64,000 bases of DNA from Candidatus Bathyarchaeia archaeon (GCA_049515895.1 JBEKTQ010000007.1:32001-96000); one strand, 5' to 3'; shown: positions 1,615 through 35,141, counted from the first letter of the stretch. Program-made: numbers and translations. The notes: a model not told the origin generated them from the letters alone.

Positions 1615-2152
1615 TGTTTTCTTCCTCCATCAACCTGACTATTTCTTTTTCAACTTGAATTTGAGCATTAAAGTGAGCGTTATACAAGTTGACAACCTTG
1701 TAAAGCCAGTAAATTCCGCCGACACCCAAAGTGACAATTGTAATCAAAACATAAGTTTTTATCGGTATCGTTTGCGGCATAAACATTCGTTCGGGAAAAG
1801 CAGCAGCAAGAAATGCGTCTTGATTCCGCTCGTGCACCAGCAAATCCTTGGACAACAAGTAAGTGATGACAAACGCCGGAACAACCAGAATGATGCTGGC
1901 CGCCCACGCCTTGGAGCTTCTCTGTGCTAAACCCTCGCTTAACGCTGGAGCTTGCTTGCCTTTGCTCTTCAGGAAATCGGCAACCTGCTTTTGGAGGTCT
2001 GCTTCACGGTTAAAATGCCTGTTCCTTCCCTCAACCAGGCGGTGAAACATTGGGAAAAACGCCACGCCGAAAGTTACGATTGCCGACAGGAACCACATGG
2101 AAAACCACATTTTCCTGTTTGCGTAGACTTTGCTTTGCAGTGCGGTTTCCAT
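1598..2152 (-). CDS. DUF4234-like membrane protein
   Basis: Repeated hydrophobic units (LSAIVTFGVAFFPMF; ITIVTLGVGGIYWLYK..N.H). ATG 2152 is the probable start. Confidence 0.65.
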   Translation of the reverse strand: METALQSKVYANRKMWFSMWFLSAIVTFGVAFFPMFHRLVEGRNRHFNREADLQKQVADFLKSKGKQAPALSEGLAQRSSKAWAASIILVVPAFVITYLLSKDLLVHERNQDAFLAAAFPERMFMPQTIPIKTYVLITIVTLGVGGIYWLYKVVNLYNAHFNAQIQVEKEIVRLMEEENTVGAM

Positions 2153-2248
2153 ATTGGGTAACTTTCCATTTGGCTGCTTACAAGCTTGGAGCACCCAAAC
2201 TTTATAAGTTCTTCCATTGGCATCTAAGAATAAATTGAGCGAGGGGAA

Positions 2249-2932
2249 ATGCTGCTTTCCATAATAATTCCCGTTTACAACGAGGAATTAACGATAGGCG
2301 ACATAATTGACCGCGTAAAAGCAGTTGCCCAACAAGTAGGATTAGAAACTGAACTGATTGTTGTGGATGACCATTCTTATGACCATTCACTTGAAGTCGC
2401 TAGCAAACGCGGGGTCAAGCTGTATTCTTTAAAACAGCATTCAGGGAAAGGTTTCGCTTTGCGTGCAGGTTTCGCTAAGACGAACGGCGACGTAATAGTC
2501 ACTATTGACTCTGACGGTTCGCATCGGCCCGAAGAGTTGCCCGAAGTTTTAGCGCCAATCCTGAAGGGTCACGCTGATTTGGTGATCGGTTCCAGGTACC
2601 TGAACCATAAGCATGTTGCTGCAAGGCGATTGAACGCTTTCGGCGTGCGACTATTCAACTACTCCATTCAGCTCCTAACAGGCGTTGCCATAACTGATTC
2701 TCAATCAGGCTACCGCGCGATGAAACAGGAAGTTTTGAAAAGCCAAAAGCTAAAGTCAGGCGAATATGAAATAGAATCGGAAATGCTTGTGAAAACAGCC
2801 AAGAAAGAATTCAGAATCGCCGAGGTGCCGATCAGTTTTGAGCAACGAACCTACGGCAGGTCAGGCGTGGACCCATTGTTTGACGGCTTCAAGATCTTTC
2901 TTTCGATATTCTCAGCTTATGTGAAGGGTTAA
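2249..2932 (+). CDS. GT2 glycosyltransferase, polyprenol-phosphate mannose synthase-like
   Basis: IIIPVYNEE, VDDHS.D, GKG.A, IDSDGSH, GSR, DSQSGYR motifs. Confidence 0.9.
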   Translation: MLLSIIIPVYNEELTIGDIIDRVKAVAQQVGLETELIVVDDHSYDHSLEVASKRGVKLYSLKQHSGKGFALRAGFAKTNGDVIVTIDSDGSHRPEELPEVLAPILKGHADLVIGSRYLNHKHVAARRLNAFGVRLFNYSIQLLTGVAITDSQSGYRAMKQEVLKSQKLKSGEYEIESEMLVKTAKKEFRIAEVPISFEQRTYGRSGVDPLFDGFKIFLSIFSAYVKG

Positions 2933-2937
2933 GCAGG

Positions 2938-3942
2938 TTGGCTGACAACGAGTTTCCCAAAGTTTCAATCATTGTCGCAGCCTACAACAACGAGCAAACA
3001 ATTGAGGAATGCCTCAAATCTATTTTGGCGCTTGATTACCCCTCAGGCTCAGTTGAAATCATAGTGATGGATGGCGCGTCAAAAGACGCTACAGTGAGAA
3101 AAGTGCAGCAGTATCCTGTTAAAGTGGTTTCAATCCGTTTAAACGCGCCTGCCGCCTACAATTACGCCATGAAAAACGTCGCAACAAACCAGATTTTAGG
3201 TTTCATTGACTCTGACGCGAAGGTTGACCGGCTGTGGCTTCGAAAAATGGTTCCCCGCCTATTGGAGCCGAAGGTTGCTGGGGTCAGCGGCAGCATCGAA
3301 ACCTGGAACGCCGAAAACCCGTGGGCAAAGTGCATCGGGTACGAACTCAAAAACCGCTACAACCGAATAGGCAAATACACAAGCCGCATCGCCACCATGA
3401 ACCTGCTTCTGAAAAAAGCAGTTATCGAGGAGGCCGGTGGATGGGATGAGGGCTTGCCCAGCCAGTACGACACAGACTTGGGCTTTCGATTAAGTGCTAA
3501 AGGCTACAGGATCGCTTACGAGCCCAGTGCAGTTTGCTTCCACTACCACAGGCCGACGCTGAAGGCTTACTACAGACAACAGTTGCAGTACGGAAAGAAC
3601 ACTTTAAAACTGTATTTTAAGCATGGCGACTTGGCGAAGGGTGATGAAATCACAGATTTCGGAATGAACGTCCAACCAGTGCTTCTTTTGACGGTCATCG
3701 TCTTTTTCTTCATCGGAATCATCCCCGCAGTCAGGCTTCTCTGGCTTGGCTCAGGCTTGATATTAGCCTCCATGCTGATCTACTTTGTTTACAGCGCCGC
3801 CAAGATTGCCGCTAAATTCCACAATCGGGCTGCTTTGCGGCTGGTTGTACTTTATTTTGTGAGGGCTCTGGCTTGGTTTGTTGGCGCATTGGTAACCACC
3901 CTTAACTTTCTGCGCGGCAAGGGGAGAAAAGCCCATGCGTAG
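2938..3942 (+). CDS. GT2 glycosyltransferase with C-terminal TM helices
   Basis: VSIIVAAYN, DGAS.D, FIDSD, GGWDE, QQLQYG motifs and a hydrophobic tail. Confidence 0.88.
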   Translation: MADNEFPKVSIIVAAYNNEQTIEECLKSILALDYPSGSVEIIVMDGASKDATVRKVQQYPVKVVSIRLNAPAAYNYAMKNVATNQILGFIDSDAKVDRLWLRKMVPRLLEPKVAGVSGSIETWNAENPWAKCIGYELKNRYNRIGKYTSRIATMNLLLKKAVIEEAGGWDEGLPSQYDTDLGFRLSAKGYRIAYEPSAVCFHYHRPTLKAYYRQQLQYGKNTLKLYFKHGDLAKGDEITDFGMNVQPVLLLTVIVFFFIGIIPAVRLLWLGSGLILASMLIYFVYSAAKIAAKFHNRAALRLVVLYFVRALAWFVGALVTTLNFLRGKGRKAHA

Positions 3943-5128
3943 CGTGTGCTTTATCTCGCCTGAGTATTGGCCTCTGTCGGGTGGAACTGGCGCCTACGTT
4001 TACTACTTATCCAACGAGCTCATGAAGAACGGCTACAGAATCTTCGTCGTTACGGGTTCCGACCAGCAGCTGGATATACAGGTAAACGAGCAGTTGAAAG
4101 TGTTTTTCCTAAAAATCCCCAAAACACCCATTGTCAAATCGTTCATACTTGCTGCCGACAGTTACCGTAAATTAAACAGCCAACGCGACCATATCAGGGT
4201 AGACGTTACCCATGCGAACTTGCCTCTGACGCCTAACTTTGCTGTGCCCCCCAACTTTGGAAAACGCCTGGTGTGCACGGTGCACTCTACGTGGAAAGGC
4301 GAAGCCCAAGCCATCCGTGGCGAACCCTACAGCCGACTCAACGCCAACGAGAAGTTCATGGTGAGTTTCAACTGGTTTCTGCGGATTTTTGAGGAGAAAA
4401 TGCTGGAACAGGCCGACAAAATCATCGCTGTAAGTCACTTCACAAAACGGGAACTGCTTGAATACTACAAAGTGCCGGCAAGCAAGATTAGAGTTATACA
4501 TAACGGCGTTGACACGCGCAAGTTCCAGCCCGCCATGGACAAAATCAAGATCAAGCAAGAGCTCGGGTTTAACTCAGATGACTTAGCCATACTATCCGTT
4601 GGCAGGCTCTACGCACGCAAAGGGTTATTCACGCTCATCGAAAGCATGCCAGCCGTTGTTAAGCAGTTCAAAAACGCGAAGTTCATAGTCTCAGGGAAGG
4701 GGCAAAGCGACGAGATGAATAAACTCATCGCCTACGCAGAGAAAGTCGGCGTAAAAGACAACTTGGTCTTTACGGGCTACTACCCCGACAAGAAACTGCC
4801 TAAACTCTACCAAGCCGCAGATGTGTTCGCCTTCTCAACTTTCTACGAGCACCATCCCTTCGCCGTTTTAGAAGCGCTTTCAACAGGTCTGCCAGTAGTG
4901 ACAACGCGGGTAGGCGGAATTCCTGAAACCATCGAAAATGGCAAAAACGGCTTCCTAGTCCAGCCGTTTAACCCAGCACAGTTCGCCGACAAGATACTTT
5001 ACCTGCTTGATCATCCAGCAAAGGCTCAGGAAATGGGGGTACTTGCCCGAAAAACAATCCTTGAACGTTTCGACTGGCGCATAGTCGTCAAAGACGCCAT
5101 TAAAGTCTACGACGAAACGCTAAGCTAA
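3935..5128 (+). CDS. GT4 glycosyltransferase
   Basis: GGTG, HNGVD, VGRL..RKG, E..PFAVLEALSTGLPVV motifs. Confidence 0.92.
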   Translation: MRSVCFISPEYWPLSGGTGAYVYYLSNELMKNGYRIFVVTGSDQQLDIQVNEQLKVFFLKIPKTPIVKSFILAADSYRKLNSQRDHIRVDVTHANLPLTPNFAVPPNFGKRLVCTVHSTWKGEAQAIRGEPYSRLNANEKFMVSFNWFLRIFEEKMLEQADKIIAVSHFTKRELLEYYKVPASKIRVIHNGVDTRKFQPAMDKIKIKQELGFNSDDLAILSVGRLYARKGLFTLIESMPAVVKQFKNAKFIVSGKGQSDEMNKLIAYAEKVGVKDNLVFTGYYPDKKLPKLYQAADVFAFSTFYEHHPFAVLEALSTGLPVVTTRVGGIPETIENGKNGFLVQPFNPAQFADKILYLLDHPAKAQEMGVLARKTILERFDWRIVVKDAIKVYDETLS

Positions 5129-6099
5129 GCGACTTGCATGGACTCACGCCTGTAAGCCATCGTAACCTTTTGGAACAGCTTAACCACATCCAGCGAGCAG
5201 AACAGCAGCTTAGTTAAGTATTCATGTTGATAAATCTCCATTTGAGCTTTCACAGGCAAATCAATTCTCGGCGGCTCAAACCTGCGCGTTACCTCGTTTA
5301 CCTGCACCCCCTGCACAATGATTGCGTTTTCTTTAAAGCCTACTTTTTTGGCAATGTAACCCAGGTACGTTTCTTCCCATTTTAGCTGCATGATTTTGGC
5401 GGCGGTTACATCGATGGATAGTGCGTCGTTGCTGCTAAGGATCAGGTTCATCTTGACCGGTTTGCCTTTTGTGGGTCCGTTGCCTTCAATTGCAATCCTC
5501 GCATCCATCACGGTCAGCTGAGGCTTCAAAACAGTGTACAGTCGGTAGAAGACTTCTGGCAGGTATGGGTGCAGGTAAATGCGCCTGTTGCTGGGGACGC
5601 AGCCGAACAGGTTTTTTATGGCGCCGCTGTACATGGCAAACTCATGCGTTTTCATTAGCGGCAAATCCACCACTGCGTCAGCCTCCAGAACTGTTTTTGG
5701 CAGAAACAACCACTTGAGCGAATTGCTGCTATCAGAAAATTTTACTTTGATGACTTTGTCTTCTGACAGGTTAATTACGCTGCCGCCCGCCTGCTTGACA
5801 GCTGCTTCTATCCCAGTTTTTTCGAACGCGGAGTTGCAAGGATAATTATACCCGTTGGATTCGCCGACAACAACTTCGCTGTTGCCGTCACGTAGCAATC
5901 CGACCAATTCGCCCAGCAACTGCGGGCATGTCACTACACCTGGCACGTACTGGGGATGGCTCATGTTGGGTTTCACATAAATCTTCTTTTTTCCACGTAG
6001 TCCCGAGTCTGCGATAGCTCGCCTCAAAATGTCGCTAATGTTGCCATCAGTTCGGAAGATATTAACTGTTTTTTGCGGTGGCTCAGGCGTCTTTGACAC
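5125..6099 (-). CDS. DUF362 family protein
   Basis: VKPN, V.T.P, LP.MKTH...SGAIKNLFG, EGNGP motifs. Confidence 0.85.
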   Translation of the reverse strand: MSKTPEPPQKTVNIFRTDGNISDILRRAIADSGLRGKKKIYVKPNMSHPQYVPGVVTCPQLLGELVGLLRDGNSEVVVGESNGYNYPCNSAFEKTGIEAAVKQAGGSVINLSEDKVIKVKFSDSSNSLKWLFLPKTVLEADAVVDLPLMKTHEFAMYSGAIKNLFGCVPSNRRIYLHPYLPEVFYRLYTVLKPQLTVMDARIAIEGNGPTKGKPVKMNLILSSNDALSIDVTAAKIMQLKWEETYLGYIAKKVGFKENAIIVQGVQVNEVTRRFEPPRIDLPVKAQMEIYQHEYLTKLLFCSLDVVKLFQKVTMAYRRESMQVA

Positions 6100-7567
6100 C
6101 TTCCGCTTGTTTTCCCATTATGCAGCCTGGGTCTGAATTCAACATGTCGCCGTTATGGTACGCTGCTGAACGTGCCCTACATCCTCCGCAAACGTATTTG
6201 TAGCTGCATTTTCCGCAAGCGCCTTTAAGGTTGCCCCTGTTCCTTAGGGCTTTGAAGAGGGGTGCGTTTAACCAGATGTCTTGGAACTTTTCAGTTTTCA
6301 GGTTGCCGACGTTCACAGGCAAAAAAACGCATGGATGAACATCTCCTTGAGGCGAAAGTGAACAGTACAATCTGCCCGCTCCGCAACCGCCGATGAAATC
6401 CGCCAGCGGCACTGCCTTCTTAGTCACTTTGACAGTTTGCATGTGCGCCATAGACATGGTTACTTCACCCGTGCCTTCTGGTCCCTGGCACTGAAGACCG
6501 ACGCGGGCTAGCTGCGGTGCGGTGGTGAGAATGGTTGTTTTGCATCCCTTGGACATTCTTGCCATTAGATACCGCATCAGTTTTTCGCGTTCTTCAGCCG
6601 TTAAGTCATCTTCATAATGGGCTTTGCCTCTGCCCGTTGGGATGAAGTTGAAGTAAGTGAACCGTTCAGCTCCAACTTCTTCGGCTAAATCGATTATTTT
6701 AGGAAATTCTTCGAAGTTGTTTTTGGTCGCCGTCGAAGCTATGCACACGCACAAGTCCGCTTCGACGCAATTTTTCAGCCCAGTCACCGCTCTGTCAAAC
6801 GCGCCAGCTACACCGCGGAAGGTATCATGCGTCTTCGCTGATGCCCCGTCAATACTGATGTCGAGGTAGTTGACTTTGGCTTGCTTTAGTTTCTGCACGT
6901 TTTCCTTGGTTAGCAGGGTGCCGTTCGTAGCTACCGACACATAGAGTCCACGGTCAGCCGCGTGCCGTGCAACTTCAAAAAAATCTTTCCGTGTCAGGGG
7001 TTCGCCTCCCGAAAAAGCCAGTGCTGTTACCCCAGCGTCTGCAAGCTGGTCAACCACCGCCTCGGCTTGCTCAGTTGTCAGTTCTTTATCGTTGACGGCG
7101 CCGCTGTTTGAATAGCAGTGCTTGCAGTTGAGGTTACATTTGTGGGTGAAGTCCCAAACAATCAAGAAAGGTGCGCAAAGGGAAATCGGCTTTTTGATCC
7201 CCATTTCGCCGAAGCTTCTAGTCAAATTCAAAACCGCGCGCCTTGCATACGGATCAGCAAGAAGCTTCTCAACTTTTTCACGCTTAATGTTGAGGCTTCG
7301 TCGCAGGAACTCAACCCAAAAACCGATAATCTGCGAGTAGAGGGCGCTGCATTTTGGGCAGTCACATTCACTTTTTCCCGCGTACGAATCCAAAGCTGCT
7401 TCAAGAACAGTTCTGCCGCAAGCGGAACATTTCCTAAGCGACAGCTTAAGCATACGCTTGGTCATCGGCAGTGTTATCACTGCATTCCAGAAGCTATCGT
7501 GGCTAAGTAGGCTCATCCGAGGCAGGTCTCCTAAAACAGGCATCAAATCAAGGGGAACCCGCATCAC
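6083..7567 (-). CDS. Radical SAM/SPASM protein, resembling the GMGT-synthase (Gms) family
   Basis: CNLNCKHC, SGGEP, TTAPQ, FIGGCGAGRLY, PCVFLP, C..C.Y...CGGCRAR..DPGC and an N-terminal Cys cluster. Radical SAM/SPASM is secure; the Gms assignment is tentative. Confidence 0.85.
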   Translation of the reverse strand: MMRVPLDLMPVLGDLPRMSLLSHDSFWNAVITLPMTKRMLKLSLRKCSACGRTVLEAALDSYAGKSECDCPKCSALYSQIIGFWVEFLRRSLNIKREKVEKLLADPYARRAVLNLTRSFGEMGIKKPISLCAPFLIVWDFTHKCNLNCKHCYSNSGAVNDKELTTEQAEAVVDQLADAGVTALAFSGGEPLTRKDFFEVARHAADRGLYVSVATNGTLLTKENVQKLKQAKVNYLDISIDGASAKTHDTFRGVAGAFDRAVTGLKNCVEADLCVCIASTATKNNFEEFPKIIDLAEEVGAERFTYFNFIPTGRGKAHYEDDLTAEEREKLMRYLMARMSKGCKTTILTTAPQLARVGLQCQGPEGTGEVTMSMAHMQTVKVTKKAVPLADFIGGCGAGRLYCSLSPQGDVHPCVFLPVNVGNLKTEKFQDIWLNAPLFKALRNRGNLKGACGKCSYKYVCGGCRARSAAYHNGDMLNSDPGCIMGKQAEGVKDA

Positions 7568-7820
7568 TTTTAAAGGTTACCGACAACCCCGTAGAGTTCT
7601 ACGACTACGCAATGAAGTGCAACGGATTAGCAGGGGAGACAAGAAACACAAGAATATACGCGTTAAAACCAATGTCAAGACTATGCAACCTACTTAACCC
7701 AATGGAAGTTAAAGAAGCACTTTATAACCGCAAATGACAAAAAAGCACTAAAAAGAATTGATACATATTGAGCGATGATGGATGCGGTGACTATAAAGGA
7801 TTCAAGAAATTAAAGTAGAA

Positions 7821-7846
7821 CTTAGTTCTATCCCTTAGTTCTATCC
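7821..7846. repeat. Exact 13-bp tandem duplication CTTAGTTCTATCC x2
   Basis: Read directly at 7821-7833 and 7834-7846. Confidence 0.9.
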
Positions 7847-7885
7847 ATCTTTTTAGGCAACTAATGAAATAAACCCATTGAAGAA

Positions 7886-7953
7886 TGCGGTCATGTGATG
7901 AACCTTCGGGTGACATATCCACCTGAATGGGGGTTCAAATCCCAGCTTCCGCA
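7886..7953 (+). ncRNA. Candidate structured RNA, copy 1 (kink-turn-like hairpin plus tRNA-like T-arm)
   Basis: TGCGG/CCGCA closing stem, GTGATGA-ACC-TTCG-GGT-GA-CAT, CTGA, GGG-TTCAAAT-CCC. Similar to 39295-39371. Confidence 0.55.
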
Positions 7954-7991
7954 AAAGGTTGACGACATCGGCGCGCGCTAGGATAAAAAAC

Positions 7992-9802
7992 ATGAAAAGA
8001 CTACAAGTCATAATACTCGCATTTCTAATCTCATTATTAATCTGTGCATTCGTGAGTATGCAAACAAAAGCTGCTACACCTACGCCTACCCCAAGACCTA
8101 CGGCAACCCCCAGACCTACGGCAACCCCAACGCCTAAACCAACGCCAACACCAACGCCAACTCCTAAACCAACGCCAACACCAACGCCAACTCCTAAACC
8201 AACGCCAACACCAACGCCAACTCCTAAACCAACGCCAACACCAACGCCAACTCCACTCCTAAACCAACGCCAACACCAACGCCAACTCCTACTCCTACTC
8301 CAACGCCAACTCCAACTCCAACGCCAACACCAACGCCAACTCCTACTCCTACTCCTACTCCAACGCCAACTCCTACTCCAACGCCAACGCCAACTCCAAC
8401 GCCAGCTCCTACTCCAACTCCAACGCCTACTCCAACTCCAACGCCAACTCCAACGCCAACTCCAACGCCAGCTCCTACTCCTACTCCAACGCCAACTCCA
8501 ACGCCAACTCCTACTCCTACTCCTACTCCAACGCCAACTCCTACTCCAACGCCAACGCCAACTCCAACGCCAGCTCCTACTCCTACTCCAACGCCTACTC
8601 CAACTCCTACTCCAACTCCAACGCCAACTCCAACGCCAGCTCCTACTCCAACTCCAACGCCTACTCCAACTCCAACGCCAACTCCTACTCCTACTCCAAC
8701 GCCAACTCCAACGCCAACTCCAACGCCAACTCCTACTCCTACTCCAACGCCAACTCCTACTCCAACGCCAACGCCAACTCCAACGCCAGCTCCTACTCCT
8801 ACTCCAACGCCTACTCCAACTCCTACTCCAACTCCAACACCAACTCCAACGCCAACTCCTACTCCTACTCCAACGCCAACTCCAACTCCTACTCCTACTC
8901 CAACGCCAACTCCAACGCCAACTCCTACTCCTACTCCAACGCCAACGCCTAAACCGACTTCAACTTCAACTCCAACTCCAACGCCTAAACCAACTCCAAC
9001 GCCAACTCCAACTCCTACTCCTACTCCAACGCCAACGCCTAAACCGACTTCAACTTCAACTCCAACTCCAACGCCTAAACCGACTTCAACTTCAACTCCA
9101 ACTCCAACGCCTAAACCGACTTCAACTTCAACTCCAACTCCAACGCCTAAACCAACTCCAACGCCAACTCCAACTCCTACTCCAACTCCTACTCCAACTC
9201 CAACGCCAACACCAACACCAACCCCAACTCAAACACCAACGCCGACGCCTGCACCGACGCCAACACCAACATTGATGCCCACTCCAACACCAACGCCAAC
9301 GCCAACACCAGCAAAAGCGTTACCGACTGCAACGCCTTCAGCACCACTTGTCAAGGCAACGACAGATGATGGGGTAATAGTTGACCTTGCAATCAGCGGA
9401 AACATAACCAGTTCACAGATGTCTGACGTTACCATCGCGACAAACCCTTCCGTCAAGACAACAACAATATCTTTCACCGTAACAGGCGAAAGCGGAACCA
9501 CTGGCTTCAGCAACCTAACCATCCCAATAAGTGCAGTATCTGATGGAACCACGCCAACAATCTACATTGACGGTCTGCACGCTTCAAACCAAGGCTTCAC
9601 ACAGGACGCCAACAACTACTGTATATGGTACACAACCAGTTTCAGCACACATCAAGTAACAATACAATTCGCAATACCACCGACGTCGAAAGCCGCATCA
9701 TTAGAACCTTCGCTCGCTGTGGGCATAACCGTCCCCGAAATCAGTTTAATCTTCACGGTAATAGCCGTCAGACGTTTGACACGAAAACCAGAAGACGCGT
9801 AA
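7992..9802 (+). pseudogene. Secreted Pro-Thr-repeat surface protein with a C-terminal anchor, broken by a 1-nt frameshift near 8255
   Basis: Signal peptide, then (PT)n. ACTCCA^CTCCT lacks one A. The shifted frame keeps encoding PT and joins ORF 9272..9802 (beta-rich domain, VPEI, hydrophobic segment, RR..RK). Confidence 0.8.
8072..9310 (+). repeat. About 1.2 kb of hexamer (CCN ACN) Pro-Thr coding repeat with higher-order duplications
   Basis: CCAACG, CCAACT, CCTACT and CCAACA units read directly. Confidence 0.95.
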
Positions 9803-9956
9803 GCGAGCGAAAACAACACACATATCAAGTCTAACACAAAGCCCTGTTTAACAACCAAATTTTGCGGTTCGCTCTGCTCGCTTCGCTCGCCACCGCTCAC
9901 ACCAACAAACCCAATTAGGAAAATAAAGAGAGAACATCAGAAAAATGCAGATAGCC

Positions 9957-10574
9957 CTAAAGCTTGCTTTTCATGATTTTTTCCGCTATTTCCAAGTCTT
10001 TGAACGTGTTTATGTTGAGTAATACCTCGAGTTCTTGCGTGATTAAGGCGTTTGTTTCTATCTTTGCTTCAGTTTGGCTTTTGGCGCCGTTAATGATGTT
10101 TACCCCTGACACGGCGTACCACTCGCCCTTGTACTCGTCGGTAGAGTCAACCGAGAGCCCTAAAGCTTCACGGGCTGAAATCGGCACGAAAACCGCGTAG
10201 AAGTCTTTCCCGCAAGCCTCAAACTGGCTGACTATTTTGTCGAGAAACTTGCCAGTGACAGCTGGAGAATCCGCTGGAACCGTTAAAATGGGACCCTGCA
10301 AATTGGCTTGGCGGACTGCCTGCTTCAAATCGTTGTGGTAACCCTTAGCGTCCGTCCGCACAACCTTCCAACCCATGCTTTGGCAGTGCTTCTCCGTTTC
10401 ACGCGTGTTGGGACTCGTTACCACGTAAAACTCCGAAATCTTCTCCGCACTCTCAACTGCCCCTGCAACCCAATCAAGTAGCGGCTTACCCATAAAATGC
10501 AGAAGCGGCTTTTCTACCGGCAATCCGATGCGCTTGCCTTTGCCCCCAGCCATAATCAACGCAGGAACTTTCAT
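9957..10574 (-). CDS. cobY: CobY-like NTP transferase, copy 1
   Basis: ALIMAGGKGKR..EKPL, PAD.P, G.NII, NINT..DL; overlaps cobS. Confidence 0.8.
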   Translation of the reverse strand: MKVPALIMAGGKGKRIGLPVEKPLLHFMGKPLLDWVAGAVESAEKISEFYVVTSPNTRETEKHCQSMGWKVVRTDAKGYHNDLKQAVRQANLQGPILTVPADSPAVTGKFLDKIVSQFEACGKDFYAVFVPISAREALGLSVDSTDEYKGEWYAVSGVNIINGAKSQTEAKIETNALITQELEVLLNINTFKDLEIAEKIMKSKL

Positions 10575-11401
10575 AGCAGAATCAACACGCCTGCAAACAA
10601 AATAAGCATAACTGCCCGCGAAACCTCGTTTGTCGCGCCAATCACGTCGCCGGAAACCCCACCAAAGATGTTTTCTGCAACCTTCTCCATCACCATGGCC
10701 ACTGGGATGCTGACCAGAACTAGCCCGACGGCGATTAAACCCAAGTAGGGTCTGCCTGTCAAAGCGAAGAAGGGGTAAACAATCAGAATGGAAATTGCGT
10801 ACGCGATTATGTTGAGTTTGGTTTTCGCTTTTTGTAGGAAAATCGAGCCTAACCCTTTATGTGTGGGTTTGCCAACCCAGACGATGGTGACCATAGATAG
10901 CTTTGCTGAGATTTCGGCGGCGAGGATGGCTCCGAAAGCGTAAAGCGGGTTAATCAAGAACAAGCCTACAAACGCGACGAACTCGACAATCAGCGCTAAC
11001 AAGGCCCCCCAGTAGGTCACGGTCCACGCGTGCGCGACCATTTTACGGTCTTGCAAGTTTCTTAAGCCAAAGGCGTTTCCTAAATCGATTAAGCCGTCGA
11101 AATGTTGTAGCCCTGTAATGACGAGTAAAAAAGCTATGGTCATCGCGGCAACCGCAAGCTTTGAAAGCAGGTCAACTGGCAAGGCAACAAACGGGTTAAC
11201 TAAACCAAGCAGGAAATGGATGATGATGTTTGCTCCGAGAAAGTAGGCTCCCGCAAGAACGCCGATTAAGCCGCCGATTATGGGAAAGAGGTAAACGTGC
11301 TCTGCCGTCGTAAAAATGAAATCTTCTTTTCCGCCCACTGGGATAATCGTTAGGAAAGACAGCAAATCCCTAAAAGTTTTTATAGCTTTCTCAGGCGACA
11401 T
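10571..11401 (-). CDS. cobS: Cobamide synthase CobS-like membrane protein, copy 1
   Basis: SFLTIIP, FPIIG, TGLQHFDGLID, FGGVSGDVIGA.NE. Confidence 0.82.
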   Translation of the reverse strand: MSPEKAIKTFRDLLSFLTIIPVGGKEDFIFTTAEHVYLFPIIGGLIGVLAGAYFLGANIIIHFLLGLVNPFVALPVDLLSKLAVAAMTIAFLLVITGLQHFDGLIDLGNAFGLRNLQDRKMVAHAWTVTYWGALLALIVEFVAFVGLFLINPLYAFGAILAAEISAKLSMVTIVWVGKPTHKGLGSIFLQKAKTKLNIIAYAISILIVYPFFALTGRPYLGLIAVGLVLVSIPVAMVMEKVAENIFGGVSGDVIGATNEVSRAVMLILFAGVLILL

Positions 11402-11448
11402 ATACCCTACACTAATTGAATCGGGATATAGACTTTGTCGTGGTAGTT

Positions 11449-12378
11449 ATGGGGGAACTCAAAGGGAAGAAGATACTTGTAACGGGCGGAGCAGGCTTCA
11501 TCGGATTCCACTTGTGCAGGCGTCTTACAGATTTAACTTCTAACTTGACGATTTACGATGACTTGTCAAGCGGCAAAATGGATAACGTTAAAGACGTTGG
11601 AAAAGTAAAGTTGGTTAAAGGAAACATCCTTGACCAAAAAAAGCTGCTTTCAACGGAAAAGGCTGATTTAATTTATCACTTAGCCGCCCAGGTTGTTGTC
11701 CCCTACAGCATGGAGAACCCGCTGATAGATTTCGAGACCAACGCAAAAGGAACCCTGCAAGTACTCGAAAAAGCCCGCAAAGACGACGCCAAACTTGTTT
11801 TCGCCTCCAGCGCCGCAGTCTACGGCAACCCGACTCAGCTGCCAACAAAGGAAGATTACGGTTTCCACCCGGTCTCCTGTTACGGCTTATCCAAGGTGGT
11901 CGGCGAAGAATATTGTGGAATGTACAGGGACCAATACGGGTTAGACGTGACCGTCGTAAGGTTCGCTAACGTTTACGGGTTAAGATGCCACGGGGTCATC
12001 CACGACTTCTTAGACAAAATAGCCAAGAACCCAAACAAACTTGAAATAATCGGCACTGGGTTGCAGTCACGCGATTTGGTGCATATTTCAGATGTAGTTG
12101 ACGCGCTCTTGACGGTGGGCTCGGAAGAATTCACAAATGGCGAAACCTACAATATCGGTTTTGGAACAACGACAAAAATAATTGACCTTGCCAACCTTAT
12201 CCTTCAAATTCTTAACTTGCAAAACAAAACTGTCATTACAACTACTGGAGTCTCTTGGCAAGGCGACATCAACACGATTTGGTTCGACATTTCCAAAACT
12301 AGAAAAGAGCTCCATTGGAACCCTAAAGTAAGCCTTGAAGACAGCATTAAAGAAGTCATCGCTGACAGGAAACTTTAA
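11449..12378 (+). CDS. NAD-dependent NDP-sugar epimerase/dehydratase (GalE-like)
   Basis: VTGGAGFIG, SSAAVYG, YGLSK, RFANVYG. ATG 11449 is the probable start. Confidence 0.9.
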   Translation: MGELKGKKILVTGGAGFIGFHLCRRLTDLTSNLTIYDDLSSGKMDNVKDVGKVKLVKGNILDQKKLLSTEKADLIYHLAAQVVVPYSMENPLIDFETNAKGTLQVLEKARKDDAKLVFASSAAVYGNPTQLPTKEDYGFHPVSCYGLSKVVGEEYCGMYRDQYGLDVTVVRFANVYGLRCHGVIHDFLDKIAKNPNKLEIIGTGLQSRDLVHISDVVDALLTVGSEEFTNGETYNIGFGTTTKIIDLANLILQILNLQNKTVITTTGVSWQGDINTIWFDISKTRKELHWNPKVSLEDSIKEVIADRKL

Positions 12379-13265
12379 TGGCTGCTCCAGCCCCAGCCAG
12401 AGGACTAATCGCTCTTCTGCGACTTCCATACTGGCTGATGACTGGCGGCTTATCAGTACTAACAGCATTCGCCATCACAAAAAGCCCCCTAAGCCTGAGC
12501 GCGCAGACAGTTCTGCTGATTTTCTTTTCAATGGCTTTCATAACATCCGCCGGCTTCGCAGTAAACGACTACTTTGATAGAGAAAGCGACGCCGTGATCA
12601 AGCCAAAACGCCCCATACCTTCCGGCGCCCTGACTCTCAGACAGGTCGTGGTGGTTTCAAGCGTGCTTTTTGCAGCGGGTTTAGTCATGGCTTTCTTCAT
12701 CAACTGGTTAAGCTTCGCGATCATCGCTGTTGACTCCGCTTTGTTGCTGGTTTATTCGACGGTTGTGAAGCGTAAGTCAGGGTTTGCAGCAAACGTTCTA
12801 GTTGGAATTTTAACAGGCACCGCTTTTATGTATGGGGAAGCAACAATTTCTATTCCTCCAGCTGTAAGCATCGTTTCACTCAGCCTCTACCCGATAGCTT
12901 TGGGCACAGTAGGCGGCAACGTGCTTCGCGATGTCCTAAGCCTTGACGGGGATTCAAAAACGGGGTACCCGACGCTTCCTCAGAAAATCGGCATAAGCGA
13001 TTCAGCCAAGGTGGCCGCTGGGTTTTTCCTTTTGACTGGCTTGTTTGCGCCTCTTCCCTTTTTAGTGGGCAACTTCAACTTGTACTATCTTTTACCTATT
13101 CTTGTTTGGAGTTGTCTTCTGATTTACTCTTCAGTTCGCCTCGTAATGGCGTCTTCAAATGTTTTAAATGTGCGGAAGTATGAACGGGTTGTCACTATGT
13201 CAATGATTCTGCTTCCGTTAGCGTTGATTCTTCAAGCGCTATCCCACATAATCGGAGGGCTATAG
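12378..13265 (+). CDS. UbiA prenyltransferase, DGGGP-synthase-like
   Basis: NDYFDRESD..IKPKRPIPSG, GD...GYPTLP, multiple TM segments. Confidence 0.85.
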   Translation: MAAPAPARGLIALLRLPYWLMTGGLSVLTAFAITKSPLSLSAQTVLLIFFSMAFITSAGFAVNDYFDRESDAVIKPKRPIPSGALTLRQVVVVSSVLFAAGLVMAFFINWLSFAIIAVDSALLLVYSTVVKRKSGFAANVLVGILTGTAFMYGEATISIPPAVSIVSLSLYPIALGTVGGNVLRDVLSLDGDSKTGYPTLPQKIGISDSAKVAAGFFLLTGLFAPLPFLVGNFNLYYLLPILVWSCLLIYSSVRLVMASSNVLNVRKYERVVTMSMILLPLALILQALSHIIGGL

Positions 13266-14738
13266 GCGAGCGAAACAAAAAGTATTTGCCCAGAATGCCA
13301 GAAGAAAATAGACGCTAAATTAACCCAAGCTAACAGCAAAATAAAAATTACCAAACAATGCCCAGAACACGGCGATTTCGAAGCCACTCATTGGCAAAGC
13401 TTACCTGTTTTCAGCCACATGCAAACTTACGACCAATTCCAGTACCTCGGCGACTTAAACGCTCCCAAAAACCCTGAAGGCTGCCCATACGCCTGCGAAA
13501 CCTGCACTAAACACGCCTCAGGCACAGTCATCGGGGTAATCGACGTTACGAAACGCTGCAACCTCAAATGCGCCGTATGCTTCTCAACGTTTCCAGAGCA
13601 GGAAACCGACTACGAACCAACCAAAGAACACCTCATAAAAATGCTGGAATTCGTAAGCAAAGCTAACCCCAAGCCGCCAGCCATCTTGTTCTCAGGCGGA
13701 GAACCCCTTGAACGAGAAGACATGCCTGAAATCATCGGCGTCGCCCACAAACTAAAGTTCATGACAATTCTTGCAACCAATGGGACACATTTGGTTGATA
13801 CTCCGGGGTTGGCAAAGAAGCTGAAAGACAAAGGCTTAAACATCGTTTATTTATCGTTTGATAGCTTCCATGACGATTTTAACAAGAAGATTAGAGGAAA
13901 AGCACTATTAGAAGAAAAACTCAAGGCTATCGACGTTTGCCGCAAATACGACATGGAAATCATATTAGTTAACACTTTGATGAAGAGTTTGAACGATAAG
14001 GAAGTCGGCGACATGATACGATTCGCCGCCAAAAATACCGACATAGTTCGAGGCTTGATCTTCCAACCAATCGCTTTCACTGGCAGAGCCACCGAGAACC
14101 CCTTCCGTGAAAACTTCCGCGAGTGGTCCTTTGCAGAAGACGTTGAGAAACAAACATACGGTGAAATAAAAACCACTGATTTATTCCCTATGTCCGTTAT
14201 GACTTCGCCAATCAAGATAATGCGCAAATTTATGCAGAAACCATGGCCCCTTTTCTCTTGCAGCCCCCAATGCGGTATCGTGAATTGGATTTACGTTTCT
14301 AAAGAGGGCAAAATGTTCCCAATCAACCGTTTTGTCAACTTTGAACGCTTCTTTTCTACAATTCGAAAAACCGCTGAGTCCGCTGAGTCTAAAGGCAAGT
14401 TCTCGCTTCTTTCTTCACTATTTATGGCGTCCATGCTTTCCATGAACATGTTGTTGGTAACCCAAGAAGTAGGAATGCTGACTCTGATGAGCTCGATTAT
14501 GCGCATGCATCTTTCGCCCTCTTACCAGTCGCTAGGCAAAATCCGCAGAAGAATCTTTCTGCTAGGGTGCATGGCGTTTATGGATTCATACAACTTCGAC
14601 GTCAACCGCGTAAGACGATGTGTAGTCCACTATATCACGCCTGACTTGAAAATCATACCTTTTTGCGCTTACAACAACATCCATCGAGTGGCTATCGAAA
14701 AAGAGTACGCCGCAAAACACAAGAAATCTCAAACTTAG
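13266..14738 (+). CDS. tes: Tetraether lipid synthase Tes (GDGT-MAS / MJ0619 family radical SAM); start codon unresolved
   Basis: Frame open from 13266: ASETKSICPECQKKID..ITKQCPEHGDF, GCPYACETCTKH, CNLKCAVC, SGGEP, CMAFMD.YNFD..RV.RC..HY.TPD.KIIPFC.YN. Confidence 0.88.
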   Translation, partial: ASETKSICPECQKKIDAKLTQANSKIKITKQCPEHGDFEATHWQSLPVFSHMQTYDQFQYLGDLNAPKNPEGCPYACETCTKHASGTVIGVIDVTKRCNLKCAVCFSTFPEQETDYEPTKEHLIKMLEFVSKANPKPPAILFSGGEPLEREDMPEIIGVAHKLKFMTILATNGTHLVDTPGLAKKLKDKGLNIVYLSFDSFHDDFNKKIRGKALLEEKLKAIDVCRKYDMEIILVNTLMKSLNDKEVGDMIRFAAKNTDIVRGLIFQPIAFTGRATENPFRENFREWSFAEDVEKQTYGEIKTTDLFPMSVMTSPIKIMRKFMQKPWPLFSCSPQCGIVNWIYVSKEGKMFPINRFVNFERFFSTIRKTAESAESKGKFSLLSSLFMASMLSMNMLLVTQEVGMLTLMSSIMRMHLSPSYQSLGKIRRRIFLLGCMAFMDSYNFDVNRVRRCVVHYITPDLKIIPFCAYNNIHRVAIEKEYAAKHKKSQT

Positions 14739-15256
14739 TTTATAACTTGAATCGGCAAGACGCAATAGTCATAAGTAAACTGGTACGCGCCGCCATCAGG
14801 ATTGAACTTGTACAGTTCAAAAACAACCCAGTAGCTGCCGACCTGATTTTCCGTGACGGTGATTGACTTCTCCCAACTTTGGCCATTTTTTAGGGTCATA
14901 TCGTAGGTTCCAGTTGGCTGAACGTTAACCGGAGAAGAATTAAGATTGTTGGTTATTTTCACCAAAACTTGGTATTGCACGGTCCATCCCACGTTATTGA
15001 CAACAGTGAGCGGCGCACTAAATGTGCTATTCTGGTTAGCAATCAAAATCTGCGGGTAATCAACCGCTTTGTTTTGCGAATCAAGCAGGTAAATCGTGCT
15101 GTAACCTTCGGGCGCGGGTTTATAGAGCAAATAATACCCTGCCAGCAACGATGCAATAATAATTAAGGCAAGGGCGATTGCAACTATGTAGCCTTTGTCA
15201 TCGTTTATGCCTATTTTCTCTCCAATGTTTTTGGCACGTTCTAACTGTATCCGCAT
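14735..15256 (-). CDS. DUF1616-like membrane-anchored protein
   Basis: One TM, E.YS.IYLL......DYP, Ig-like C-terminus with VFELY. Confidence 0.7.
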   Translation of the reverse strand: MRIQLERAKNIGEKIGINDDKGYIVAIALALIIIASLLAGYYLLYKPAPEGYSTIYLLDSQNKAVDYPQILIANQNSTFSAPLTVVNNVGWTVQYQVLVKITNNLNSSPVNVQPTGTYDMTLKNGQSWEKSITVTENQVGSYWVVFELYKFNPDGGAYQFTYDYCVLPIQVIN

Positions 15257-15935
15257 CTAGAAATCCCTTGAATATTGTGCTAAATATTTCAATACCCGAC
15301 TTAAATGGTTTAAGCTTAGTCTTCCCGTATTTGCGGGGTTTGTATGTAGTGGGGATTTCAACCATGTTATATCCAACCTTGGCGAATTGCACCAGCATTT
15401 CAGTGGCAAAAGCCATGTCACCTTCTACTAGAGGAACGTTGTCGATGGCTTCGTGTGATATTGCTCGGAATCCTGATTGCGTGTCGCTGAGCAGTTGACT
15501 GTAAAAGAAGTCGTAGACCATGGTTATTATTTTGTTTCCGATGAAATTTTTAAATCCCATGGCTTTTTTCGGGTCGAACATCCGCGTGGCTAAAACCATG
15601 TCTGCGTCCTTCTCAACCATTCTCTCAAGCAAGCGGTTGATGTGTTTTACCTCGTAGGTTCCGTCACCGTCAACCATGACGATAATGTTTCCCTTTGCAT
15701 TTTTCATGCCCGTTCTGAGAGCGATTCCGTAGCCGCGTCTCGGCTCAATAATGAGCTTGCAAAAACTCGTGTCCTTAACGATTTCTATTGTCCCATCTGT
15801 GGAGTTGCCGTCAACGACAATTATCTCCTTCGGGTACGCCAGTTCCTTCTCGATGGTTGTCACTGCCTCAAGAATGTTTCCCGCTTCGTTAAGCGTTGGA
15901 ATAACGACCGAAACCATTTCAACTTTTGATGTCAT
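15198..15935 (-). CDS. GT2 glycosyltransferase (DPM1-like)
   Basis: VVIPTLNE, VDG.S.DGT, GYG.A, DGDGTY, DTQSGFR. Confidence 0.9.
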   Translation of the reverse strand: MTSKVEMVSVVIPTLNEAGNILEAVTTIEKELAYPKEIIVVDGNSTDGTIEIVKDTSFCKLIIEPRRGYGIALRTGMKNAKGNIIVMVDGDGTYEVKHINRLLERMVEKDADMVLATRMFDPKKAMGFKNFIGNKIITMVYDFFYSQLLSDTQSGFRAISHEAIDNVPLVEGDMAFATEMLVQFAKVGYNMVEIPTTYKPRKYGKTKLKPFKSGIEIFSTIFKGFLDADTVRTCQKHWRENRHKR

Positions 15936-15978
15936 GGCAAACTCCCATCGTGAAGGCTATAGTGTCTTCGCATCAAGG

Positions 15979-17136
15979 TTAAATAAGCTCTTCGTATATT
16001 TCCACGAGAGTTTCAACGTTTCTGTCCCAGCTATACTTTTCTTCAACCGCAGCCCGAAGCTCCCCTATGCCACAGGATAAATCAGCATCCGAATATTCTA
16101 AGATTGCTTTAGCCATGAGCTCCGGTTGATTGGGCGGCACCAACTTACCGAAATCTTCCATTAGAATCTCCTTTATTCCCCCGACGTTTGTAGCTATAAT
16201 CGGCAAGCCACAAGCCATCGCTTCAAGCGCAACCAAAGGCAAACCTTCACCAGATTTTGATGGCAACAAAAAGAAGTCAGCCGCATTATAACAGGAAGGC
16301 AAATCCCCATCGCTGACGAAGCCGGCAAGCCGAAAGTTTTTTTCTATCCCTAACTGACAAATTCTGGTTTGAACGTCGTTTTGATCGGGTCCTTTCCCCA
16401 CAACAAGGAAAACAAGGTTTGGATTCTTCTTGACCGCGATGTTTGCGCTTTCAATCAACGTGTCGATCCCGTTCTTGTAAACAAGCCTCCTCACAGTCAA
16501 GGCCACGACCGCGTTATTTGGAATCCCAAATTTGAATCGCATTTCCTCCCGTTTTCCCGGAAGATGCCTAAAATGAACCAGGTCAACGCCGTTATGCAGA
16601 ACTCTGATTTTGTCTGGTTTTGCACCCAAACTGAGGACATACTCTCTGGTTGCGTTACTCACCGTGATTATTCTGTCTGCTTCTTTAAGCGTCTCCGTTC
16701 CAACTGTCAGGTCGTTTAGGCGCTCGACTTTGTCAAACATGCTGTCGTACTGAATGAACGTGTTGTGCTGAGTTAAAAAAAAGGGCTTTCCATACCTTTT
16801 GGCAAGTTTGGCAGCAATAAGCGACGTAAGGTAGGGGTGACCATGCGCGTGAACTATATCGCTTGCCTTCACGGCTCTAAGGAAAGTTTCAAGGCTTGTG
16901 GGCGTTGGGATCGAGTAGGGTATACCCAGGCGAAAGCCTGTGTTTAAAGATTCATAGCATTCAACGTTTATGCCTTCGACTGAATAGGTTTTAGGGGTGT
17001 CGATGCGGTTGGTGACAACTGTGGGCTTGAAATTCTTCATCATTAGCCGCTTGCTCTGTTCATAAACAACCTTTTCTATCCCGCCGACATGGGGTAGAAA
17101 AGTATGCGTAACGATGCACAGCCTTGTTTGAACCAT
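15979..17136 (-). CDS. GT4 glycosyltransferase
   Basis: P.VGGIE, HNGVD, EGLPLVALEAMACGLP. ATG 17136 is the probable start. Confidence 0.9.
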   Translation of the reverse strand: MVQTRLCIVTHTFLPHVGGIEKVVYEQSKRLMMKNFKPTVVTNRIDTPKTYSVEGINVECYESLNTGFRLGIPYSIPTPTSLETFLRAVKASDIVHAHGHPYLTSLIAAKLAKRYGKPFFLTQHNTFIQYDSMFDKVERLNDLTVGTETLKEADRIITVSNATREYVLSLGAKPDKIRVLHNGVDLVHFRHLPGKREEMRFKFGIPNNAVVALTVRRLVYKNGIDTLIESANIAVKKNPNLVFLVVGKGPDQNDVQTRICQLGIEKNFRLAGFVSDGDLPSCYNAADFFLLPSKSGEGLPLVALEAMACGLPIIATNVGGIKEILMEDFGKLVPPNQPELMAKAILEYSDADLSCGIGELRAAVEEKYSWDRNVETLVEIYEELI

Positions 17137-17561
17137 GGAAACCCAACAGCGTAAACTCCTCAATCGACAAGCAATTATAAGCCTTCTGGTAAATTTACAC
17201 ACAGGCGCTCACAGGTGGAACAGTTCAAATGCACTCTCTAAGTGGAAATCGCGGCTATTGAGCGTAAAATTTTTTTGAGCGCCTCGTATTCATCGAAACC
17301 AAAATACTTATATGAAGAGGTTGGATAAACCAACCAAACACGGGCGGATAATTTGCTGAAAATCGAGAAAAGACCGCTTATTCCACTCAATCTTCTACCA
17401 ATCGGCATATTATCTGGATATTTAACGACCAAAACCACGTTTTCCTGTTCACACGTTTCTGAGCTTATTTTGCCTAAATCGTTTGCAAGTCACGTTCACT
17501 TTGAACCAGTTGAGAAATCAACGGTTAAGGGTGAAGGACAATTACGGAGGATATAACCAGA

Positions 17562-18248: not shown

Positions 18249-18249
18249 A

Positions 18250-19350: not shown

Positions 19351-19351
19351 G

Positions 19352-32369: not shown

Positions 32370-32640
32370 TCGTTTTCCAATTTGCTATGGCTGTTGAAGC
32401 GATAAAAGAGTTATCGTCAAGGATTCTTGACTAAAGGTTTCTTGACAAAGCTTGACCATTGAGTTTCTGGATAGGAAGAATCATTTTTTTTGATTTTTTG
32501 GCTTGAAAAATGGTTCATCATGGACTTTGATTCAATAACGAAGGAAGTTTCTCCATGGTTTTTTTGGTGTTGATTAGTAATCCCAAGCAATCCACAATTA
32601 TATAACATGTTTCCTGCTTCTTCTGCCAAGGTTTATCAAT

Positions 32641-33051: not shown

Positions 33052-33152
33052 AGTAGGCTTCTATGCTTTAAGCTGATATAATCAAATGGATATGTTTTTC
33101 ACTACACACATATCGTTAATTCTGATTTCAAATTAGTAATAAGACGATTGGT

Positions 33153-34989: not shown

Positions 34990-35007
34990 GATAAGAGATA
35001 ATCTAAA

Positions 35008-35133: not shown

Positions 35134-35141
35134 CTTCTGTT

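Follow-up and report, generated by a model that had tools for sequence, protein, structure and literature searches.

A second tetraether-synthase-family gene in a conserved gene island of Bathyarchaeia points to a specialised membrane lipid

Genes of the locus

Archaeal tetraethers are major sedimentary biomarkers, and Bathyarchaeia are among the most abundant subsurface archaea; to our knowledge, the lipids of Bathyarchaeia are barely known. Here we describe positions 2249 to 17136 of a 64,000-nucleotide stretch (the window; contig C7, 32001-96000 of genome G000) from a Candidatus Bathyarchaeia archaeon of peat, in which a second tetraether-synthase-family gene (tes2) stands in one operon with genes for an epimerase and for a second prenyltransferase resembling digeranylgeranylglyceryl phosphate (DGGGP) synthase (ubiA2). 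The region forms the centre of a conserved and probably lipid-tailoring island, with the housekeeping copies of the lipid genes elsewhere in the genome, and the arrangement suggests a specialised membrane lipid not yet described, more than ordinary lipid synthesis. A sequence-only reading of the same DNA had proposed that the locus builds, cross-links and glycosylates tetraethers. Our gene map, made from a listing of open reading frames (ORFs) together with Pfam and NCBIfam scans, contains all the genes named in that reading, each in its given place. It also contains three features that had gone unmentioned: a pair of CobS-like and CobY-like genes (CobSl and CobYl), a 2.4-kb repeat insert, and an anomalous start of tes2.

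The principal genes are the following, where GT2 and GT4 denote glycosyltransferase families and scores are in bits.

2249-2932, plus strand: GT2a, polyprenyl-phosphate hexosyltransferase-like, accessory block (PF00535; AglJ model TIGR04182, 169.7 bits)
2938-3942, plus strand: GT2b, accessory block (PF00535/PF13641; best NCBIfam match MftF, 140.6 bits, cut-off 280)
3935-5128, plus strand: GT4a, accessory block (PF00534 and PF13439)
5125-6099, minus strand: DUF362 protein, co-transcribed with the radical SAM/SPASM gene (PF04015, 159 bits)
6083-7567, minus strand: radical SAM/SPASM protein, Gms-like candidate (PF04055 and PF13186; best NCBIfam match AhbD, 307 bits, cut-off 500)
9957-10574, minus strand: CobYl, CobY-like nucleotidyltransferase (PF12804; TIGR00454, 124.2 bits)
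10571-11401, minus strand: CobSl, CobS-like membrane transferase (TIGR00317, 112.6 bits)
11416-12378, plus strand: SDR, GalE-like nucleoside diphosphate (NDP)-hexose 4-epimerase (PF01370)
12378-13265, plus strand: UbiA2, second DGGGP-synthase-like prenyltransferase (PRK12882, 169.8 bits; 6m31)
13266-14738, plus strand: Tes2, second tetraether-synthase-family radical SAM protein, open frame (NF045702, 456.6 bits; 7tol)
14735-15256, minus strand: DUF1616-like single-pass membrane protein (PF07760, 50.7 bits)
15198-15935, minus strand: GT2c, dolichyl-phosphate (Dol-P)-hexose-synthase-like, core (AglJ, 157.6 bits; 5mlz)
15979-17202, minus strand: GT4b, core (PF00534 and PF13439; PimB' 3oka)

Curated cut-offs are 450 bits for NF045702, 296 for PRK12882, 269 for PRK12884, 110 for TIGR00317, 174.7 for TIGR00454 and 325 for TIGR04182. 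The SDR, UbiA2 and Tes2 genes run head to tail on a single strand, the first two overlapping by 1 nt, and the CobSl/CobYl pair (9957-11401, minus strand) is divergent from the epimerase gene. The DUF362 and radical SAM/SPASM genes overlap by 17 nt.

The genome passes the NF045702 cut-off twice, with 660.7 bits for a gene on contig C1 and 456.6 bits for the window gene. The latter score is for the full 490-codon frame; read from the first ATG, the protein scores 394.4 bits and loses profile positions 1-64. Tes2 aligns with residues 72-505 of 7tol, the solved GDGT-MAS (E 3.6e-96). We aligned 28 Tes2 sequences with 21 canonical tetraether synthase (Tes) sequences drawn across the class. Ten cysteine columns (8, 11, 32, 77, 80, 98, 102, 105, 336 and 452) are invariant in 49 of the 49, and columns 73 and 467 are kept in 48; we take these to be the ligands of the zinc ribbon, the radical SAM cluster and the auxiliary clusters, the assignment to each cluster being our assumption. 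By its sequence Tes2 is a true member of the Tes family, as the sequence-only reading had it: the score exceeds the cut-off, the match to 7tol is close, and the iron-sulphur cysteines are retained.

Within the family, Tes2 looks catalytically competent, as an enzyme of its own kind. Fourteen alignment positions are fixed differently in the two groups, and a quick maximum-likelihood tree split all 28 Tes2 from all 21 canonical sequences (SH-aLRT 100, joint branch about 1.8). Because this separation holds across the whole class, Tes2 is no recent duplicate within the order. Within this genome, Tes2 and the canonical Tes share about 38-40% identity, and Tes2 evolves faster than the canonical copy of the same genomes.

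Four genes of the genome match Pfam UbiA, and NCBIfam identifies them as a heme O synthase, a MenA-like protein, a canonical DGGGP-synthase-type protein on contig C23, and the window copy. With the canonical Tes on C1 and the DGGGP-synthase-type UbiA on C23, the tes and ubiA genes of the window are second, divergent copies. The best solved relative of UbiA2 is the Methanocaldococcus DGGGP synthase 6m31 (MJ0279; E 2e-29), which agrees with the earlier description of the protein as DGGGP-synthase-like. Its second aspartate motif reads RDxxSxxGD in 28 of 28 orthologues, and KGIVDVQGD in the genome's canonical copy. Judged from these comparisons, both are old paralogues that evolve fast, UbiA2 of DGGGP synthase and Tes2 of tetraether synthase.

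The tes2 frame opens at 13266, directly after the TAG of ubiA2 and in phase with it, and the start position reads GCG; the window has TAG GCG (13263-13268) where the nearest relatives have TAA GTG. Among the 35 closest loci examined (of 80 fetched), 33 have ATG, GTG or TTG at the equivalent codon and the other two (L081 and L114) have ATC and GTA, while 27 of 27 further loci have a canonical start no more than 8 codons from the aligned position; in all, 60 of the 62 relatives compared have a start codon there or close by. The stop of ubiA2 and the start of tes2 overlap or adjoin each other in relatives. The first canonical start in the window is at 13419, and starting there loses the N-terminal zinc ribbon. 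Apart from this, the 490-codon frame is unbroken, with up to 94% identity to the frames of relatives. In this population, tes2 is a case of an unconventional start, a low-level product, or a fresh inactivation.

We considered two other accounts of the start codon and rejected both. The first is an assembly error at the GCG: contigs of two sequencing runs match 12900-13700 with 0 differences, although both runs possibly come from the source sample and contigs drop rare variants. The second is read-through of the TAG, perhaps as pyrrolysine, giving a UbiA2-Tes2 fusion. In the closest relatives an ordinary stop codon stands before a GTG, none of the genome's 36 tRNAs has the anticodon CUA, and searches of the genome gave no PylS match over the cut-off and no PylD match.

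Distribution and gene order

We searched for Tes2 in a class sample of 300 other Bathyarchaeia genomes and in a phylum sample of 400 genomes (threshold in the latter E <= 1e-115). Below, f1 is the family of the window organism and g30 a genus of family f5; f1 and f5 belong to one order. Tes2 orthologues, at 45-91% identity, occur in 37 of the 300 class genomes: 13 of the 14 in the window's genus, 17 in other f1 genera, and 7 of 7 in g30. A second Tes match was also found in 33 of these 37, the other four being 88-95% complete. Of the 263 sampled class genomes without Tes2, 210 have a Tes-family match. In the phylum sample, Tes2 was present in 22 of 400 genomes, namely 18 of 25 from f1, 4 of 6 from f5, and 0 of 369 others. 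The 80 closest public loci are labelled Candidatus Bathyarchaeota or Bathyarchaeia, those from termite guts Candidatus Bathycorpusculum. Across the genomes we sampled, the island keeps to a single order of Bathyarchaeia, by the names of close relatives the Bathy-6 or 'Candidatus Bathycorpusculum' group.

For gene order we took 20 kb around Tes2 from 27 genomes (22 f1 and 5 g30 loci) and mapped the window proteins onto each. A core of eight genes emerged: CobYl and CobSl, divergent from SDR, UbiA2 and Tes2, which are in turn convergent with the DUF1616-like gene, GT2c and GT4b. The core order recurs in 27 loci from 27 genomes at 28-92% protein identity, with five loci missing one gene or the trio of DUF1616-like, GT2c and GT4b genes. 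This recurrence indicates that the grouping is more than chance. Conserved co-localisation was the test that the sequence-only reading had set for itself, and the core order is indeed kept in these 27 related loci.

Among the 22 f1 loci, CobSl, UbiA2 and Tes2 are present in all, and SDR, CobYl and the DUF1616/GT2c/GT4b trio in 21 each; order and orientation are constant except at one rearranged locus (L046). The g30 loci run GT4b, GT2c, DUF1616, SDR, UbiA2, Tes2, all on the same strand, with SDR, UbiA2 and Tes2 in 5 of 5, GT4b and the DUF1616-like gene in 4 of 5 each, and GT2c in 3 of 5. The CobSl-CobYl pair lies 3.5-5 kb downstream in four of the five, and the fifth stretch ends before that point. 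In g30, a gene for a pyridine-nucleotide disulphide oxidoreductase (L066:3968-5398, in G090) lies between the Tes2 operon and this pair.

The block of GT2a, GT2b, GT4a and the radical SAM/SPASM gene, with or without DUF362, stands next to the core in 15 of the 22 f1 loci; the other 7 do not have it within the 20 kb taken. This block is accessory.

Sugar genes, cobamide genes and a proposed product

The radical SAM/SPASM protein of the accessory block had been taken for the Gms cross-linker of tetraethers. Its NCBIfam matches are all sub-threshold, to AhbD, NirJ and relatives; Li et al. placed Gms near AhbC/AhbD in a sequence network (PMC11186832). Its homologues carry generic names only, and the protein atlas has unnamed radical SAM/SPASM clusters for them. 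[quoted passage not shown] An AlphaFold2 (AF2) model built from 29 sequences (mean confidence, pLDDT, 83.7) predicts six N-terminal helices (4-13, 15-24, 35-43, 56-72, 77-85 and 87-103), a radical SAM barrel, a beta-hairpin (351-361, with a low pLDDT of 45-57) and the SPASM domain. Full-length members of the family (E <= 1e-90) occur in 121 of 301 class genomes, with or without Tes2, at 55-91% identity in Tes2 genomes and 36-49% outside them. This occurrence fits the published statement that Gms homologues are numerous in Bathyarchaeota (PMC11214058). We consider the protein a plausible Gms candidate, likened to Gms by the published architecture that its model matches. We count the earlier Gms assignment among the unsupported points, the likeness being one of architecture only; members of the family are also common throughout the class, in many cases away from the core.

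Taken literally, the earlier proposal has the locus build bulk tetraethers through DGGGP synthase and Tes, cross-link them through Gms, and glycosylate them. It accounts for the presence of Tes, DGGGP-synthase-like and SPASM radical SAM families together with five glycosyltransferases, and for a radical SAM/SPASM protein whose predicted fold has the published Gms architecture. However, the canonical Tes (C1) and the DGGGP-synthase-type UbiA (C23) lie on other contigs with much higher scores, most class genomes without Tes2 (210/263) retain a Tes-family match, and tes2 has no start codon here. The radical SAM/SPASM family is found in its 121 of 301 class genomes regardless of Tes2, and is not adjacent in 7 of 22 f1 loci. 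We hold the literal proposal, with the locus as builder of the bulk tetraethers, to be very improbable. The earlier interpretation is right in part: the cluster is conserved and has a lipid character, yet it is a paralogous, lineage-restricted module of a larger island.

The sugar genes point in more than one direction. The solved proteins nearest to SDR are the archaeal GalE-type UDP-hexose 4-epimerases 3icp, 3ehe and 3aw9 (E 9e-52 to 1.6e-47), so the epimerase named in the earlier reading is GalE-like; on the GalE model TIGR01179 it scores 165 bits, below the cut-off of 262.3. The glycosyltransferases had been proposed as lipid enzymes, and for GT4b the link has support: among solved proteins its best match is PimB' (3oka, E 1.9e-19), a glycolipid enzyme that mannosylates phosphatidylinositol mannoside. 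For the GT2s it fares worse. Two of the three, GT2a and GT2c, best match AglJ and dolichyl-phosphate-hexose synthases, so that a grouping with N-glycan enzymes, which the earlier reading had named as evidence against itself, was found in part. These matches are below cut-off, at about half of the 325 bits of TIGR04182 (169.7 and 157.6) and at 95.4 and 107.3 bits for GT2a and GT2c on NF041391 (cut-off 375). The sole solved relative of GT2c at E <= 1e-10 is the Pyrococcus Dol-P-Man synthase 5mlz.

The DUF1616-like protein, at 173 amino acids, covers only profile positions 153-287 of 307. Its AF2 model (pLDDT 89.1) has a short helix, one membrane helix and an Ig-like sandwich, and a fold search with the model returned generic Ig-like matches only, the best of domain size being CARDB 2kl6 (TMt 0.73). 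An N-S-T sequon is near-invariant. The protein is not an obvious enzyme.

These features suggest a second account, in which the GT2s make polyprenyl-phosphate sugars and the GT4 and epimerase assemble the glycan of a surface protein, for example the DUF1616-like one, with UbiA2 and Tes2 tailoring a lipid carrier or anchor rather than a membrane lipid. The AglJ-like and Dol-P-Man-synthase-like matches of GT2a and GT2c are what this account would predict, as are a single-pass protein with an Ig/CARDB-like ectodomain bearing a near-invariant sequon, and an AglB gene with an AglH-like gene on the same contig. DUF1616 proteins are membrane glycoproteins in Haloferax, and one of them is N-glycosylated (PMC8241124). 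On the other side, AglB is 40 kb off and outside the conserved unit, the glycosyltransferase matches are all far under curated cut-offs, and the UbiA2-Tes2 pair mirrors two consecutive steps of core-lipid synthesis. We know of no Tes-family enzyme that acts on a glycan carrier. Surface glycosylation as the purpose of the locus appears fairly unlikely. The AglB (STT3) oligosaccharyltransferase and the AglH-like PF00953 glycosyltransferase genes stand side by side at 57421-60651, 40 kb from the cluster.

Beyond the core, the neighbouring genes and features of the window are as follows.

493-1539, minus strand: CobD-like pyridoxal phosphate (PLP) enzyme 'amt', threonine-phosphate decarboxylase type, second copy (TIGR01140)
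1598-2194, minus strand: small membrane protein 'dufTM' (weak DUF4234/DUF6693 matches)
7568-9956, plus strand: genome-specific Pro-Thr-repeat insert (6-nt period repeat)
17562-18248, plus strand: Dph6-like gene, directly before CobT (below equivalog cut-off)
18184-20733, plus strand: canonical-type CobT-CobS-CobY operon flanking the island (TIGR00303, 388.5 bits, cut-off 240; TIGR00317, 146.6 bits; TIGR00454, 158.2 bits)

Upstream of the window (G000:C7:10457-30613; L184, L185), a stretch of 20 kb has seven B12-binding radical SAM genes, and scattered among them are a second CbiB, a SAM methyltransferase, an amidohydrolase, an AsnC-type regulator and two Dph6-like genes. The same set is present in another genome of the genus (G187). 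In G090, the Tes2 operon is accompanied, at 43-63% identity, by most of this set and its neighbours, namely the amidohydrolase, four B12-binding radical SAM genes, the methyltransferase, the radical SAM/SPASM gene (57%), GT4a, GT2b, GT2a, the small membrane protein and the CobD-like gene, with CbiB just beyond the stretch. DUF362 found no match in the G090 island. In G090 the conserved island therefore extends over at least about 32 kb, and the same genes are spread over more than 40 kb in G000. For the seven upstream genes the scans gave only generic class-B matches under cut-off, and that these genes act on lipids is our assumption. In the f1 loci and in g30, dufTM adjoins amt in every case where the fetched stretch includes both.

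The CobSl and CobYl genes belong to a wider set of cobamide-type genes. CobSl scores 112.6 bits on TIGR00317, over the cut-off of 110, and the neighbouring canonical-type CobS scores 146.6. CobYl is under its cut-offs (TIGR00454, 124.2 vs 174.7; NF045495, 99.7 vs 250), as is the canonical-type CobY (158.2 and 124.4). CobYl is 35% identical to the CobY at 20116-20733 and CobSl 34% identical to the CobS at 19352-20125, and the family motifs are kept. CobD-like scores 265.5 bits on TIGR01140 for the listed ORF and 277.5 for the open frame (cut-off 290.55), while the canonical CobD on C21 scores 305; its orthologues, at 56% identity or more, form a second copy in 28 of 30 f1 Tes2 genomes. G000 has two copies each of CbiB, CobD, CobY and CobS and one CobT (G000:C21:82418-84408; G000:C7:15985-16827; window 493-1539), the duplicate set being a nearly complete second cobamide nucleotide-loop pathway.

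The co-occurrence of CobSl and CobYl with Tes2 is what first suggested a head-group role for them. In such a Kennedy-type route, the CobD-like decarboxylase would give an amino-alcohol phosphate, CobYl an NDP-alcohol, and CobSl a phosphodiester on a lipid or sugar. Of the 37 Tes2 genomes, 36 have a match at the CobSl level (E <= 1e-40) and the remaining one has a fragment at a contig end; the 263 others have none (best E about 2e-31). In a FastTree analysis of 43 CobS sequences, the Tes2-linked CobSl of f1 (13) and g30 (4) formed one clade of 17 with support 1.0, apart from canonical CobS. In g30, moreover, the pair is within 5 kb of Tes2, and the other CobS of G090 is about 50 kb off. Catalytic motifs are retained in both proteins, and by analogy with what is generally known of CobY and CobS the chemistry would fit, with nucleoside monophosphate transfer followed by phosphodiester formation at the membrane. 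The second CobS of g30 (L188, G090:C1:422000-441999) has a long branch and lies beside two AhbD/NirJ-like radical SAM/SPASM genes, away from other cobamide genes.

The g30 genomes also supply the evidence on the other side. In 5 of 5, the island CobY-type gene is the sole one (127-132 bits, next matches at 34 bits or less), and no CobD-type gene other than its neighbour reaches E <= 1e-60; CobT is single and elsewhere, and CbiB has two copies, one of them flanking the island in G090. With the only CobY and the only strong CobD in the island, the loop-assembly set of the island must be the working one there, if cobamides are finished at all. In f1 as in G090 the island has a CbiB copy at its flank, which makes the set complete, and f1 genomes without Tes2 are mostly without any CobS, so the co-occurrence is perhaps the co-inheritance of one island. 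We know of no Kennedy-type amino-alcohol-phosphate head-group route in Archaea. For CobSl and CobYl, a role in the cobamide nucleotide loop is likelier than one in lipid head groups, and we judge the head-group route distinctly unlikely.

A broader combination would make the whole island a parallel lipid line for an undescribed class of archaeal lipid: a macrocyclic or tetraether core built by UbiA2 and Tes2 on a non-standard acceptor, a head group from the Cob-derived trio, and methylation, desaturation and cross-linking of the chains by the B12-binding and Gms-like radical SAM enzymes. Such a line may connect to the backbone-methylated (butanetriol-type) tetraethers of Bathyarchaeia. Butanetriol tetraethers have been assigned to another genus (PMC12694404). 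We regard the combination as a long shot.

Our preferred reading is a specialised pathway for a macrocyclic or membrane-spanning ether glycolipid, to which the sequences would give about even chances. Family memberships, conserved metal ligands, gene coupling, synteny and distribution are direct observations. We infer the substrates, the product and every step of the mechanism, which would run as follows. UbiA2 would make an ether-linked isoprenoid lipid, using a dedicated acceptor or a dedicated prenyl donor, and Tes2 would couple the ends of the isoprenoid tails through a radical C-C bond to give a macrocyclic or membrane-spanning core. The epimerase would supply a 4-epimerised NDP-hexose, and GT2c and GT4b would attach the hexose to the lipid. 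Such a glycolipid would be a minor, specialised one, and not the bulk membrane. The CobSl/CobYl pair most likely still acts in cobamide loop chemistry, serving the many B12-dependent radical SAM enzymes of the island.

Several observations weigh against this preferred pathway. The synteny was found among kin of two families and so represents few independent events, and the separation of the Tes2 clade rests on a quick tree. UbiA2 falls under both DGGGP synthase cut-offs (169.8 vs 296 on PRK12882, 167.7 vs 269 on PRK12884); the C23 gene, at 261 bits on PRK12884, is itself under the cut-off of 269. In its second metal motif one aspartate is replaced by serine. In sequence, GT2a and GT2c resemble N-glycosylation enzymes (AglJ) as much as anything. 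The Haloferax DUF1616 glycoproteins (PMC8241124) mean that the glycosyltransferase part could serve a glycoprotein. Finally, tes2 has no canonical start in this genome and may be poorly expressed or newly dead.

With these points in mind, a Tes paralogue always accompanied by a DGGGP-synthase-like prenyltransferase of its own, an epimerase and two glycosyltransferases offers a concrete candidate for a lineage-specific lipid, and one that can be cloned. Metagenome counts of 'Tes homologues' mix at least two functional classes. The cobamide-finishing genes in an island rich in B12-binding radical SAM genes suggest an arrangement for cofactor supply.

Several further features of the window stand apart from these questions. 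The 2.4-kb insert at 7568-9956 is specific to this genome, relatives having no gene between the radical SAM/SPASM and CobY-like genes. Its product has a signal peptide, a Pro-Thr repeat of about 1.2 kb, a globular domain and a C-terminal membrane anchor; the repeat has a 6-nt period (x184), and the reading frame is broken inside it near 8230-8260. The insert causes the GC-skew spike of -0.58 at 8-10 kb. Three Dph6-like genes (diphthine-ammonia ligase family), all under the equivalog cut-off, lie within 50 kb (window 17562-18248; L184:17135-18043; L185:4068-4808). From 32000 to 40000 the window has a GC content of 0.365-0.40, against about 0.47 elsewhere, with few long ORFs, none of which has a Pfam match, and only scattered short imperfect repeats; this stretch may be of foreign origin. 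An Rfam scan of the window gave no family at threshold.

Comparison with known systems

Literature searches for tetraether synthase with CobS and, by titles and abstracts, for two Tes copies in Bathyarchaeota found no published account of the pairing. The island can be compared with known systems gene by gene. With the cobamide loop enzymes (TIGR00454, TIGR00317, TIGR01140, TIGR00380), the island copies share families, motifs and the CobS-CobY gene order. They differ in forming a clade of their own, in their place, always beside the Tes2 operon, and in being 34-35% identical to the canonical-type copies 8 kb away.

For Gms (METOK_RS04425, PF0647), the predicted structure of the window protein matches the six-helix N-terminal domain and the beta-hairpin of the bridging region (PMC11186832, PMC11214058). 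The window protein also has an N-terminal CxxC...CxxC motif, which the available parts of the Gms descriptions do not mention (PMC11186832, PMC11214058), and its gene adjoins DUF362 and not a Gmm or Grs gene. UbiA2 retains the first NDxxDxxxD motif and the RPxPSG loop of DGGGP synthase, and is 33% identical to the genome's canonical copy.

The known precedent for a second Tes is limited to Methanosarcina acetivorans MA_1114, a homologue of unknown role; its expression gave no glycerol dialkyl glycerol tetraether (GDGT) and only traces of macrocyclic archaeol (PMC8941075). By that description, MA_1114 and Tes2 are alike in that each is a second Tes-family copy beside a working Tes, and the outcome for MA_1114 is a precedent for functional divergence of second Tes copies (PMC8941075).

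The closest comparison is with Tes/GDGT-MAS itself (MJ0619, 7tol; MA_1486; NF045702). Tes2 is like these in family, in length, in the radical SAM CX3CX2C motif and in the other conserved cysteines, and it too has the N-terminal zinc ribbon (PF23545, matched in the G090 orthologue). Unlike them, it is always coupled to its own UbiA and epimerase, and it occurs in a subset of one order, where it is additional to a canonical Tes wherever the assembly shows it.

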